Origin: a virus
Taxonomy: Duplodnaviria > Heunggongvirae > Uroviricota > Caudoviricetes
IMG/VR virus record: IMGVR_UViG_2681813263_000012
Length of the DNA: 7,972 nt
Strand: one strand, 5' to 3'
Positions 2,913-7,972 of the stretch are shown piece after piece (the first letter of the stretch is position 1; every line of letters starts with the position of its first letter). A program made the translations under genes and the position numbers. The notes under the pieces are model-generated. The model made no database searches, was not told the DNA's origin, and worked only from the letters and a program-made list of their open reading frames with translations.

Positions 2913-3578
2913 NNNNNNNNNNNNNNNNNNNNNNNNNNNNNNNNNNNNNNNNNNNNNNNNNNNNNNNNNNNNNNNNNNNNNNNNNNNNNNNNNNNNNNNN
3001 NNNNNNNNNNNNNNNNNNNNNNNNNNNNNNNNNNNNNNNNNNNNNNNNNNNNNNNNNNNNNNNNNNNNNNNNNNNNNNNNNNNNNNNNNNNNNNNNNNNN
3101 NNNNNNNNNNNNNNNNNNNNNNNNNNNNNNNNNNNNNNNNNNNNNNNNNNNNNNNNNNNNNNNNNNNNNNNNNNNNNNNNNNNNNNNNNNNNNNNNNNNN
3201 NNNNNNNNNNNNNNNNNNNNNNNNNNNNNNNNNNNNNNNNNNNNNNNNNNNNNNNNNNNNNNNNNNNNNNNNNNNNNNNNNNNNNNNNNNNNNNNNNNNN
3301 NNNNNNNNNNNNNNNNNNNNNNNNNNNNNNNNNNNNNNNNNNNNNNNNNNNNNNNNNNNNNNNNNNNNNNNNNNNNNNNNNNNNNNNNNNNNNNNNNNNN
3401 NNNNNNNNNNNNNNNNNNNNNNNNNNNNNNNNNNNNNNNNNNNNNNNNNNNNNNNNNNNNNNNNNNNNNNNNNNNNNNNNNNNNNNNNNNNNNNNNNNNN
3501 NNNNNNNNNNNNNNNNNNNNNNNNNNNNNNNNNNNNNNNNNNNNNNNNNNNNNNNNNNNNNNNNNNNNNNNNNNNNNN
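2913..3578. other. N-masked gap (666 nt)
   Basis: Run of n immediately downstream (minus sense) of paralog B. It hides the paralog B 3' end and whatever follows. Confidence 1.
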
Positions 3579-3873
3579 GAATATTATCGCTATACAAAAT
3601 TGCTATAGCCGCCTTGAGATATTTTTCAGGGCTAACGCTGTATTTGTTCGTTTCTTCGATAATAAGACGCTTCATGTTTGAGTCGGTAACAGGAAACATA
3701 AAACGCGGTTCACCAGTTTCAATTTCCTGAATAAAGTCTTCAATTTCTTCTGAGTTTTCAGCCATTAGCTTTAGTAATTTATCAAGGTCAATTGATACAC
3801 CGGAATCAGCGAAAGCCTGCACCATCATAGCAGTGTCGCTATCAATGAAAATCTGTAATTCATATTCGTTCAT
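3579..3873 (-). CDS. Small hypothetical protein, paralog B of the 4515-4838 gene; first 98 aa visible, 3' end in N-run
   Basis: ATG at 3873-3871 with AGGAG 8-9 nt upstream (aaaaggagattttaaaaATG). The protein MNEYELQIFIDSDTAMMVQAFADSG...AILYSDNI aligns along its whole length with the 4515-4838 product. The ORF-track TTG start at 3906 is unlikely. Confidence 0.7.
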
Positions 3874-4211
3874 TTTTAAAATCTCCTTTTTACCAGACCT
3901 CCTCAATCGCTCTGTAACGAGCTAAACAGTCTTTTTCAGGGGTAGCCTGTACAGTGGTATTACCCACCCTAAAATAAGATAGTTTTTTGCGTTAGAATGC
4001 GATTGAGAGCGTCTGATAAGCTGTTTTTCTAATTTCTCTTAAAGTCTCGGACTACCAATAACCTAATTCCGCTTTATTTCGTTCAAACCATTCCGCTGTA
4101 ACTGCTGTCTTTAGTGTTGCGTTTGGGCTGGTGGCATGAATGAAGATATCTTTTGGATTGCAAGCATCACCGAAACCACCTTCTTTGATGAGCAGGTCTG
4201 ATACATGCTTA

Positions 4212-4222
4212 NNNNNNNNNNN
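4212..4222. other. N-masked gap (11 nt, not a multiple of 3)
   Basis: Run of n. The reading frame across it cannot be trusted. Confidence 1.
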
Positions 4223-4384
4223 GCAAAGGATTCAATAATGAATGAACAAGAGTACTTTTTGAGATAGCCTCTCAGACTAACCTGAAAGGCCATGACGAAA
4301 AGCATTGCACCTTTCCAACTCAGAATATCCATCCATCGGATTATTGAAAGAAAAATAAGAGAGAATTGCTCTCCCATAATTAAA

Positions 4385-4413
4385 ATTATGCCATGCTTAA
4401 GGTTATTTGTCAA
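4385..4413 (-). promoter_or_regulatory. Candidate sigma70-type promoter (TTGACA-17 nt-CATAAT) reading leftward
   Basis: Minus-strand TTGACA at 4413-4408, a 17-nt spacer, then CATAAT at 4390-4385. A weak hairpin and U-tract follow at about 4377-4346 (gggagag-caatt-ctctctt then ttattttt). Confidence 0.35.
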
Positions 4414-4437
4414 CAGCTTTTTAACAGGTTGATAACA

Positions 4438-4515
4438 TCAATTCTTATTTACCGCATTGTTAATAATACAACCAACAAATAAGCCAAGCAACGTCCAAGC
4501 AATTATTAAACCCAT
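4438..4515 (-). CDS. Candidate 25-aa hydrophobic peptide (MGLIIAWTLLGLFVGCIINNAVNKN), translationally coupled to paralog A
   Basis: Its ATG at 4515-4513 overlaps the paralog A stop as TAATG. GAGGG lies about 9 nt upstream. A single predicted transmembrane-like helix, then TGA at 4440-4438. Too short for the ORF track; found by manual translation. Confidence 0.3.
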   Translation of the reverse strand: MGLIIAWTLLGLFVGCIINNAVNKN

Positions 4516-4838
4516 TAGTGAACCCTCACAGAATCCGTCACCAGAATATTATCACTGTACAGGATTGTCACAGCACCTTTCAAAAATTGCTCTGGGGAAA
4601 TACTGTATATGTTCGTTTGCTCGATAACCAATCTTTTCATGTTGCTGTCTGTAATTGGTAGCATCATTCGAGGCTCGTTAAACTCCACCGACTGAATAAA
4701 GTCAGAGATGTTTTCTGCATTATCAGCCATCAGCTTTAGTAATTTATCAAAATTAATTGCGATACCTGCATCAATGAAGCTTTGCACCATCATAGCAGTG
4801 TCGTTATCAACCATAATTTGCATTGGGTAATTATTCAT
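4515..4838 (-). CDS. Small hypothetical protein (107 aa), paralog A
   Basis: ATG at 4838-4836 with AGGAG about 8 nt upstream (cataggagatttaaaaATG); stop TAA at 4515-4517. Product MNNYPMQIMVDNDTAMMVQSFIDAGIAINFDKLLKLMADN... The longer ORF-track start at 4961 lacks an RBS and lies in the leader. Confidence 0.75.
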   Translation of the reverse strand: MNNYPMQIMVDNDTAMMVQSFIDAGIAINFDKLLKLMADNAENISDFIQSVEFNEPRMMLPITDSNMKRLVIEQTNIYSISPEQFLKGAVTILYSDNILVTDSVRVH

Positions 4839-5005
4839 TTTTAAATCTCCTATGAAACACACCTCAGACCTCTTAAAATAGCCATTCTGAGGCCAGTAAC
4901 CATGCGGGTTACAGAGGGAGTTGCACTGGCTGGTAAGGTAATTTATCAAATTAAGGTGCAACTCTGCCTGTAAAGTGCATTCTACCGTTTCTTAGATGGT
5001 TATTT

Positions 5006-6808: not shown

Positions 6809-6886
6809 GGGTGACCTCTAACACGGGTGACATTTTGTCACTACCCCCATGACATTTTGTCACTGGTAGTGGTGTCATTTTGTCTT
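6753..6886. repeat. Origin-like repeat block: AT-rich TTATCTAA 12-mers, a 16-bp tandem repeat x2, and three iteron-like repeats at 22-bp phasing
   Basis: TTATCTAA at 6768, 6780 and 6792 (12-bp spacing), plus ttatctgt at 6753. ctctaacacgggtgac at 6800-6815 and 6816-6831, perfect tandem. gtgacattttgtcact at 6827-6842, atgacattttgtcact at 6849-6864, and degenerate ggtgtcattttgtctt at 6871-6886. All checked base by base. Confidence 0.6.
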
Positions 6887-7230
6887 ACTGAGGCTGCAAC
6901 TTCCTGTGATGTAGGTCTTACAAGTAATTCCGGCTTATCATCCAGTGTGAATACACGATAAGTGCTTTGACGCCCCTGATTCTTTTGCACCTGAATTAAA
7001 CCGTGTTTCTCAAGTGTCTCAATGGCTCTGATTGCTGTTCTCTTTGATACACCAGCCATATAAGCGAGATGGTCAATACTTGGTGAATATGATTTGTATT
7101 TCTCTTCATAGAAGTCACAGCTATGGACCATGACCATATAAATCAATCTTGCTGCTGCGTTAATTTCTTCTGAAAGTTGAGAGATTCGCACATCAAATTT
7201 ATAAAACTGATTTGGGTTATATTTAGACAT
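6841..7230 (-). CDS. Replication initiator-like protein, lambda-O N-terminal-type winged HTH (129 aa)
   Basis: ATG at 7230-7228 with GAGGT about 9 nt upstream; stop TAG at 6841-6843. Segment ...SIDHLAYMAGVSKRTAIRAIETLEKHGLIQVQ... matches the HTH pattern I recall for phage O-type and plasmid replication-initiator N-terminal domains. The gene's 3' end overlaps the iterons. Confidence 0.65.
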   Translation of the reverse strand: MSKYNPNQFYKFDVRISQLSEEINAAARLIYMVMVHSCDFYEEKYKSYSPSIDHLAYMAGVSKRTAIRAIETLEKHGLIQVQKNQGRQSTYRVFTLDDKPELLVRPTSQEVAASVRQNDTTTSDKMSWG

Positions 7231-7593: not shown

Positions 7594-7972
7594 TTAGCTC
7601 AACCTTTGAGCAATCCTGTATGACGTGCTCAGAGGCATTCTGAGAGCATCTGCAATGTACTTAATGGGTTTTCCTTGCCTGTATAGTTTTATGAAGCTGT
7701 CGAGCGTCTCAGGTGGGTAAATGGTGGGTCTTCCTCTTAGTCCACCACGGTTAATGATGGTTAACGGTAGCAATGTATCAGCACAGCAAACCATCTGTGT
7801 AATTTCATGCTTACGTGGTTCTTTTTTAAAAACAACGACTGCACTTGGAAACGGTGACCTAATAGTAAGCCTGTTATGCCCTGCTGGTGGAAGGTATTTA
7901 ACTGCACGATGAAGAATACGGATTTCATGACAGTGGTTATTGCTGTAAATGTGCCTAAGCCAGTAGCTGGTG
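7594..7972 (-). CDS. DNA-binding protein with C-terminal Hin/resolvase-type HTH; 5' end beyond window
   Basis: Manual translation shows the frame of ORF 7594-7794 stays open up to the window edge (...TSYWLRHIYSNNHCHEIRILHRAVKYLPPAGHNRLTIRSPFPSAVVVFKKEPRKHEITQMVCC...). C-terminus GRPTIYPPETLDSFIKLYRQGKPIKYIADALRMPLSTSYRIAQ fits the resolvase-type HTH pattern. No serine-recombinase catalytic motifs in the visible part. Confidence 0.45.
   Translation of the reverse strand, partial: TSYWLRHIYSNNHCHEIRILHRAVKYLPPAGHNRLTIRSPFPSAVVVFKKEPRKHEITQMVCCADTLLPLTIINRGGLRGRPTIYPPETLDSFIKLYRQGKPIKYIADALRMPLSTSYRIAQRLS

Follow-up and report, generated by a model that had tools for sequence, protein, structure and literature searches.

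The 7,972-nucleotide stretch of the IMG/VR virus record IMGVR_UViG_2681813263_000012 (Caudoviricetes), hereafter the window, carries all of its genes on the minus strand and holds, downstream of gene A2, an acidic 107-amino-acid (aa) gene of unassigned function (4515-4838, minus strand), a module composed of a promoter and an RNA (4413-4223, minus strand). Comparison with homologous loci indicates that this module very probably comprises a conserved promoter and a functional non-coding RNA, and we put at about even the chance that it serves as the control region of the late, structural operon of a small phage-like island, acting through a structured and mostly terminated leader RNA. An earlier note, made from the sequence of the window alone, had drawn attention to the region for a near-consensus promoter, a weak hairpin with a U-tract and the lack of a convincing gene.

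Promoter and RNA structure

Homologs of the module were collected by pattern scans and an nhmmer profile, which yielded 92 instances (85 unique; 72 distinct full-length versions) from E. coli, S. sonnei, E. albertii, Escherichia sp., Citrobacter sp., IMG/VR and metagenomes; individual loci are denoted L001, L002 and so on. Of 5,426 complete E. coli genomes, 477 (~9%) contain a match to the region downstream of gene A, in all cases on the chromosome, and many of these matches begin exactly at the promoter and extend for ~270 nt. Promoter-pattern matches that lack the conserved RNA core described below (L006, L011-L013, L016, L020 and L022) were set aside as chance matches.

The TTGACA-17-CATAAT promoter reported in the earlier note is confirmed at 4413-4385 on the minus strand. 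It consists of TTGACA (4413-4408), a 17-nt spacer and CATAAT (4390-4385), with a TG at 4393-4392 that provides an extended -10 element, and thus matches the sigma-70 consensus at 11 of 12 positions in addition to the TG. It is the top-scoring promoter-like site of the whole window and also the best-scoring site in L001-L003 and L005. Since the total number of promoter-like sites in the window is not above that of shuffled sequences, we place weight only on the score of this promoter and on its conservation. Across the 92 instances, hardly any variation is seen in the promoter, its spacer and the 30 nt that precede it, whereas the flanking genes are just 60-90% identical; among the 85 unique homologs, all of which retain the promoter, the -35 hexamer and the spacer are invariant or nearly so. 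The -10 hexamer reads GATGAT or GAAGAT in a minority of homologs, and the TG is retained there. Near-consensus hexamers, a spacing of 17±1 bp and conservation, the hallmarks of a sigma-70 promoter, are all found here, with activity itself predicted from the sequence. No other element of the locus is as conserved as the promoter, which persists in an E. coli variant, L233, from which gene A and most of the tiny hydrophobic open reading frame (ORF) next to it are deleted; this speaks against the option that the upstream operon merely ends here in a terminator beside a chance promoter match. Judged by these features the promoter is genuine, and it is predicted to drive a conserved, folded non-coding RNA.

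The RNA body as retained in the window (4223-4378, minus strand) matches a profile built from its homologs with an nhmmer E-value of 6e-69; its 3' part was lost at a junction described in the next section. The predicted start (~4377-4378) lies 7-8 bases past the -10 hexamer, where the 5'-terminal hairpin P1 begins (AUGGGAGAG-CAAUU-CUCUCUUAU, 4355-4377, minus strand), followed by the U-rich UUUUUCUUUC (4354-4346). The hairpin described earlier as weak is present at 4377-4355 and is conserved with compensatory changes: of its five pairs (helix 1), three carry changes in both partners (GC to AU in 4-16 sequences), and 96% of alignment cells are paired. The U-tract noted behind it is likewise present in the window, but it is not a conserved feature, a T-rich tail following P1 in only ~37 of the 72 distinct versions and the remainder reading GAAUUAAA or AAAAUCAU. 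Because the tract is missing from about half of the homologs and the conserved unit continues for 185-260 nt to a different terminator, the promoter-proximal RNA or attenuator of ~30 nt that had been suggested is not supported, and a 5'-terminal stem is the better reading of P1.

Downstream of P1 lies the core (GAAAGGUGCAAUGCUUUUC, 4297-4315, minus strand), which is predicted to form a 7-bp hairpin with a GCAAU loop (helix 2) and contains a Shine-Dalgarno-like AAGG and an AUG. The 20-nt core GAAAGGTGCAATGCTTTTCG, i.e., window positions 4315-4297 plus one base, is invariant or nearly so, being identical in every instance, including eight of the eight loci found by BLAST and ten genuine promoter-pattern loci. 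As divergent loci found by BLAST alone carry the exact core, and the promoter too, the invariance is not an artefact of the pattern search. The core hairpin shows no variation and its pairing is predicted only, with a single G·U to A-U change that is compatible with it. The long hairpin P3 (CAUGGCCUUUCAG-GUUAGU-CUGAGAGGCUAUC, 4263-4294, minus strand; helix 3) comprises ten pairs, of which four have changed on both sides, with 99.7% of cells paired; its stem is retained in at least six sequence versions, and, on the opposite strand, A·C would stand in place of many of its G·U pairs. The P4 region (GUUCAUUCAUUAUUGAAUC, 4229-4247, minus strand), a putative short hairpin or a run of CAUU repeats, occurs in all versions with a varying number of CAUU units.

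P1, the core hairpin and P3 were derived with RNAalifold from a covariation alignment of the 72 distinct full-length versions. In this alignment, 99.1% of cells form standard pairs, compared with 46-66% in controls with the 3' partners shifted by 1-3 columns; changes on both sides are seen in seven pairs, as opposed to 0-2 in these slid controls; and 56 cells are compensatory, against a shuffle mean of 15, with none of 500 shuffles reaching the observed value. The abundant G·U pairs in the helices fit the promoter strand only and would be mismatches on the other strand. The window RNA, on the minus strand, has a minimum free energy (MFE) of -46.1 kcal/mol (z = -3.2), its plus-strand complement -31.8 kcal/mol (z = -2.3) and the intact S. 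sonnei RNA -56.5 kcal/mol (z = -3.6). Compensatory helices, strand specificity and the lack of a conserved ORF, by which a structured non-coding RNA is recognised, are thus all observed, and conserved covarying structure is present in homologous loci, one of the points on which the earlier note had made its proposal depend. A covariance-model search against Rfam 15, also proposed there, matched no family: nothing was found in the window at E <= 1, and at permissive thresholds the window, five homologs and the intact RNA gave chance-level matches only, far below threshold.

Outside the core, hairpin modules make up the transcribed part in mosaic fashion, and its versions differ by indels of 2, 27 and 28 nt; some versions carry self-contained hairpin inserts of 27-28 nt at two positions of the RNA. 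A (GAUG)n run in the 5' half of the RNA (window ~4326-4336, minus strand) has 2-5 units among homologs, and a (CAUU)n run in the 3' half (4229-4247, minus strand) has 1-4 units; the two are complementary via G·U pairs, and their copy numbers are uncorrelated. A long-range helix between the two runs is seen in single-sequence MFE folds; it is not claimed here because 5' and 3' variants recombine freely.

Coding capacity and rearrangement of the window copy

Two ORFs had been listed in this region, and both are present: a 100-aa frame with a TTG start on the minus strand (4111-4413), broken by Ns at 4212-4222, and a 21-codon frame on the plus strand (4136-4201). The first 63 codons of the 100-aa ORF cross the promoter and the non-coding RNA; the last 32 fall in the 3' fragment of a conserved 66-aa gene and read it in the wrong frame, so that this ORF exists only because of the junction between the two. 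It is a chimera and an artefact, and the 21-codon ORF is spurious. On both strands, no ORF of at least 30 aa is common to more than two of the 72 versions. The frame that opens at the one conserved AUG runs for 5 to more than 49 codons and continues, after MLF(V/A), in three different frames. The absence of a convincing gene is therefore borne out, no ORF being conserved and a non-coding RNA being supported, while a leaderless or small membrane protein, another of the options raised earlier, is not supported, given a frame that breaks into three after residue 4.

The window is masked at 985-2065, 2770-2816, 2913-3578 and 4212-4222, and the 11 masked bases of the last run cover a rearrangement junction, with the RNA upstream and the middle of the 66-aa gene downstream on the minus strand. 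The remnant of this gene (WP_000882272-like; 4052-4210, minus strand) is a 3' fragment of 52 codons plus stop, whose translation KHVSDLLIKEGGFGDACNPKDIFIHATSPNATLKTAVTAEWFERNKAELGYW* matches the protein annotated in L001, a related E. coli island; the true frame (4210-4052) reads KHVSDLL...AELGYW* and differs from that of the 100-aa ORF. In BLAST comparisons with L001, window 4225-4865 corresponds to gene A and its downstream region, and window 3580-4211 to gene A and its upstream region. The IMG/VR contig L018 and the S. sonnei loci L227-L232, of which L018 and L227 carry a single intact copy, are 99.4-99.6% identical to the window from 4223 onward and 100% identical to it over 2817-2912. In L018 and L227, 45 nt with the terminator GCCCUUCACAGAAAUGUUUAGGGCUUUUU stand where the window has 1,310 nt (2913-4222). 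This extra segment consists of the 66-aa gene fragment and a diverged second gene A, gene A1 (3579-3873, minus strand), a paralog with ~70% DNA identity to A2 and a masked 3' end; a second, presumably intact copy of the RNA and intergenic module would lie under the 666-nt mask at 2913-3578.

The match of the window copy to its homologs ends at 4223, just within the 5' arm of a conserved GCCCU...AGGGC hairpin. As 11 masked bases are too few for the remaining ~27 nt, the copy has lost its 3' end and terminator. Judging from these alignments, the window RNA copy (4413-4223) is a duplicate whose terminator has been replaced by the recombination junction. The junction was not found colinear in any complete E. 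coli genome.

Probable operator, terminators and the proposed late-operon model

In every annotated locus, the module occupies a gap of ~460-550 nt that holds no annotated feature. Gene A and the tiny hydrophobic ORF form one flank; the other, downstream flank consists of a 236-aa gene, one or two small ORFs, a tape-measure gene and a baseplate gene. The island as a whole spans ~11-13 kb, resembles SpLE2 of O157 Sakai and is inserted into yecE by a serine recombinase; a large serine recombinase and a split yecE (DUF72) bound it. In L233 (3300-3860, minus strand), gene A and most of the tiny ORF have been deleted between short GGGTAA repeats, and the 66-aa gene is followed directly by the promoter and RNA module, which sits before the 236-aa gene. 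Because L233 keeps the module without gene A, we assign the module to the downstream operon.

A triple direct repeat with operator-like features (TGTTATCAACC / TGTTAAAAAGC / TGTTGACAAAT, 4405-4437, minus strand) lies at the RNA promoter. Its unit, TGTT(A/G)A, recurs in an 11-bp phase, with the third repeat overlapping the -35 hexamer, and is nearly invariant across homologs. The same triple repeat, again with 11-bp spacing, is found at 5782-5750 on the second-best promoter of the window (TTGACA-17-TAAAGT, 5780-5752, minus strand), where the repeats span the region from -35 to -10; at the RNA promoter they lie upstream of and over the -35. It also occurs at the early promoter of L001 and is absent elsewhere in the window on both strands. 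From its sequence and placement, the repeat is a probable shared operator of the RNA promoter and the early promoter of the island, and a common DNA-binding regulator is likely because the same triple repeat stands at both. The first gene behind the 5780 promoter encodes a 96-aa protein (5715-5425) that is a candidate regulator.

The conserved 3' element of the RNA is the GCCCU...AGGGC hairpin, which is followed by a T-rich run in 54 of the 60 scored versions (~90%) and is called as a terminator in L001, L002 and L003, giving a predicted RNA length of 185-260 nt. A second strong terminator, intrinsic and highly conserved (GGGAGAGATTATCGAGTGAYATCGGTAG..CTCCC followed by T6, with a stem of 15-16 bp), is present in at least 35 loci, between the small gene that follows the 236-aa gene and the tape-measure gene (L001 4744-4779, minus strand; L002 5764-5799; L003 5502-5539); the equivalent part of the window is masked. 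Since this second terminator precedes the tape-measure gene, the tail genes lie behind two terminators. Between the RNA promoter and the tape-measure gene, no promoter-like site with a score of at least 10 of 12 was found. A pairing of P1 with the second terminator was considered and dropped, as the 5' arm of the terminator is invariant across P1 variants and shows no covariation.

In the late-operon model, the near-consensus promoter would be governed by the three-repeat probable operator that it shares with the early promoter of the island, and would produce an RNA that folds into P1, the invariant 20-nt core and the long hairpin P3. After 185-260 nt, this RNA would meet an intrinsic terminator in ~90% of the 60 scored versions. 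Behind it stand the 236-aa gene, one to two small genes, often the second terminator, and the tape-measure and baseplate genes, so by default a short terminated RNA would be made and the tail genes would be expressed only via read-through or antitermination. In the window copy, transcripts would instead enter the 66-aa gene fragment and gene A1. The model builds on promoter conservation, the covarying RNA structure, the non-coding nature of the RNA, the gene context and the 3' truncation seen in the window, all of which are directly supported. The transcription start, termination, operator function and antitermination are the components that it predicts.

Several observations weigh against this model. 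Both the start and the 3' ends of the transcript are predicted. About 10% of versions, including that of O157:H7, lack a U-tract after the GCCCU...AGGGC hairpin, and a scan of the O157 locus revealed no second terminator, from which we conclude that termination is not universal. A consensus scan such as ours would miss an activator-dependent promoter before the 236-aa gene. No Q-like or N-like antiterminator was recognised among the island proteins in Pfam and PHROG searches, in which neither gene A, the conserved 66-aa gene nor the others matched a Q family, and the AlphaFold model of the gene A product, with a predicted local distance difference test (pLDDT) score of 51, is too poor for a fold search. 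As all homologs are related (Escherichia, Shigella and Citrobacter), the covariation could partly reflect a small number of recombining modules. Lambda-type leaders, moreover, require no conserved RNA fold. The strong conservation of the fold in a leader that would not need it suggests an RNA-level function beyond that of a simple leader, and we keep open a cis-acting antitermination role, like that of put or EAR RNAs, as well as a trans-acting small RNA (sRNA). More speculatively, and in our view quite doubtful, the module may represent a new class of cis-regulatory RNA, a protein-independent processive antiterminator or a sensor of a helper-phage factor, in uncharacterised satellite-like islands of E. 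coli, Shigella and E. albertii that carry tail genes (the SpLE2 family). Relief of the TGTTA operator would then be followed by passage of RNA polymerase through both terminators into the tape-measure and baseplate genes.

A stand-alone trans-acting sRNA that pairs with host or helper-phage mRNAs is a rather unlikely alternative; it would have its own promoter, P1 as a protective stem at its 5' end, the core as an invariant seed and a Rho-independent terminator, and such a role could coexist with that of a leader, as in the case of StxS at PR' of Stx phages (PMC7547250). The strong promoter, the terminator present in most versions and the invariant 20-nt core within an otherwise mosaic RNA would suit an sRNA, as would the fact that the module is more conserved than its neighbour genes and that many BLAST matches begin exactly at the promoter. 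Yet the core is predicted to be mostly paired, and the island offers no conserved complementary target: matches of 10-12 nt vary by locus, L002 does not keep a 12-mer that in L001 fits the beginning of the 66-aa gene, neither the mRNA of the tiny ORF nor the downstream start region offers a conserved target, and duplexes with neighbouring mRNAs are no better than shuffled ones. The U-tails are short (UUUUU, UUUCUUU), and the window copy has no terminator. In addition, the table from Hfq cross-linking and analysis of cDNA (Hfq-CRAC) in O157 Sakai (Tree 2014) contains neither an SpLE2 label nor an entry at 2.742-2.746 Mb, a weak argument as the mapping of the region is inferred. The strand specificity of the fold bears on a different proposal, that the conserved unit is a DNA-level element, be it a packaging (cos/pac) site, an origin or a recombination site, with the promoter incidental. 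Many islands have, ~0.7 kb upstream, a gene for an HNH endonuclease, a kind of enzyme often associated with cos packaging; inverted repeats abound in the long gap, which bears no annotation, and the invariant 20-mer could be a protein-binding site. However, read from the opposite strand, or in a DNA cruciform, many G·U pairs of the helices turn into A·C mismatches, folding is far more favourable for the minus-strand RNA than for its plus-strand counterpart, and no similarity to phages or plasmids was found, although the cos site of a satellite would be expected to copy that of its helper. The strand-specific G·U pairs and the lack of a phage counterpart disfavour a DNA site, which we regard as highly improbable.

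We give almost no credence to a small protein, whether the 100-aa or leaderless ORF or a short peptide started at the AUG of the core. The core does present AAAGG-N4-AUG, which resembles a ribosome-binding site, and MLF(V/A) is conserved; but past residue 4, 2-nt and other indels send the reading into three unrelated frames of 5 to more than 49 codons in all, indels of 27 and 28 nt fall within the putative coding region, and the C-terminal part of the 100-aa ORF is out of frame with the true 66-aa gene. Just as little speaks for a type I toxin-antitoxin system with the RNA as antitoxin and the tiny hydrophobic peptide (4515-4438) as toxin. A hydrophobic ORF of 21-25 aa does adjoin a small RNA with a strong promoter, and the duplication in the window takes in both. 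Both lie on the same strand, however, and the complementarity of the RNA to the peptide mRNA is matched by 8 of 100 and 52 of 100 shuffles. Free recombination is seen between RNA modules and peptide types, and an island variant that has lost the peptide gene still carries the RNA.

Island proteins, related systems and significance

The tiny hydrophobic ORF itself (MGLIIAWTLLGLFVGCIINNAVNKN, 25 codons, 4438-4515, minus strand) overlaps the stop codon of gene A2 (TAATG). Among homologs it is kept at 21-25 aa in three divergent types (also MELVIICFVLIGMIAGASIKV and MTLVILWTALGLLCGCLIANEANRN), and it is unannotated in the RefSeq loci inspected; its sequence suggests that it is probably a real membrane micro-protein. 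Gene A has 3,253 homologs at E <= 0.001, of which the best 120 are all hypothetical and those with a named source come from Escherichia or Shigella, and it has no Pfam or PHROG match. A Pfam and PHROG search of nine island proteins returned two matches and none for the other seven. A 129-aa HTH_36 protein (6841-7230, minus strand) resembles the N-terminus of phage replication initiators, and a 66-aa protein (7594-7794, minus strand) has a family match to a resolvase-type helix-turn-helix.

Searches by megablast and blastn against phage and plasmid collections revealed no similarity to the region, and a search of IMG/VR with the 236-aa protein returned five known contigs and one new one, with no distant relative. 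Matches to 15-mers of the core in IMG/VR outside the island were rejected as chance because none extends past 15 nt, and the core sequence was not found in a literature search. The O157:H7 island, ~13.4 kb between yecN and yecD, fits SpLE2 of O157 Sakai by size, and we infer that the two are the same; published SpLE2 measures 13,459 bp with 16 genes, and papers that mention it give size and coordinates only. In O157:H7 (L005/L226), IS1203/IS629 splits the tape-measure gene that the island carries, and the promoter and RNA are intact. In S. sonnei (L227-L232), insertion sequence elements cut the island within the homolog of the 236-aa gene, and there, too, the promoter and RNA are intact.

Among characterised systems, the late control region of phage lambda, PR'/6S/tR', offers the closest parallel, together with StxS, and its version in Shiga toxin (Stx) phages yields the sRNA StxS from PR' (PMC7547250). 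As there, a strong promoter stands directly before structural or late genes, and a default RNA of ~190 nt would run to an intrinsic terminator, with further terminators inside the operon (the window copy lacks the first); because of these further terminators, read-through would need antitermination. In contrast to lambda PR', no Q gene or Q-like protein was recognised among the island proteins, although a helper phage might supply Q; there is no similarity to phage records, and ~10% of island versions have no clear first terminator. The island RNA shows covarying helices that are conserved and a core that does not vary, neither of which 6S of lambda requires, and, unlike PR', the island promoter is probably not constitutive because of its operator-like repeats.

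HK022 put and Bacillus EAR are cis-acting RNAs that bring about processive antitermination. The island RNA is similarly structured, comes just after a promoter and before the terminators of a long operon, and has no evident dedicated antiterminator protein; it differs in that, with no Rfam match, no sequence or structure similarity to these RNAs is recognisable, and any action on RNA polymerase is hypothetical here. The Hfq-dependent sRNAs AgvB, AsxR and HnrS, 51-66 nt long, come from lambdoid prophages of enterohaemorrhagic E. coli (PMC4104026, PMC13502914). The island RNA shares with them its non-coding nature, a promoter and terminator of its own, and residence in horizontally acquired DNA of pathogenic E. 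coli, but it is 185-260 nt long with multiple helices, belongs to a non-lambdoid island and is not in the published Hfq-CRAC list, insofar as the mapping of the region holds. The CI RNA of P4 and the c4 RNAs of P1 and P7 act via repeats that are complementary to sites further along their own transcript. Here, too, a regulatory RNA would come from the 5' part of the transcript under its control in a satellite or prophage, yet no complementary repeats were found in the island RNA, nor any match to the Rfam families C4 or IsrK.

For the window, the analysis disposes of the 100-aa ORF as spurious and traces the break by Ns to a rearrangement junction. More broadly, the island is present in ~9% of complete E. 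coli genomes, including O157:H7, as well as in S. sonnei, and hardly any of its genes has a known function. The gap left blank by annotation holds the best promoter of the island, a probable operator and a covarying RNA with an invariant core, which is a candidate for an RNA family new to Rfam 15. This control region would provide an experimental handle on the switching of the tail genes and on a possible satellite that responds to a helper phage.

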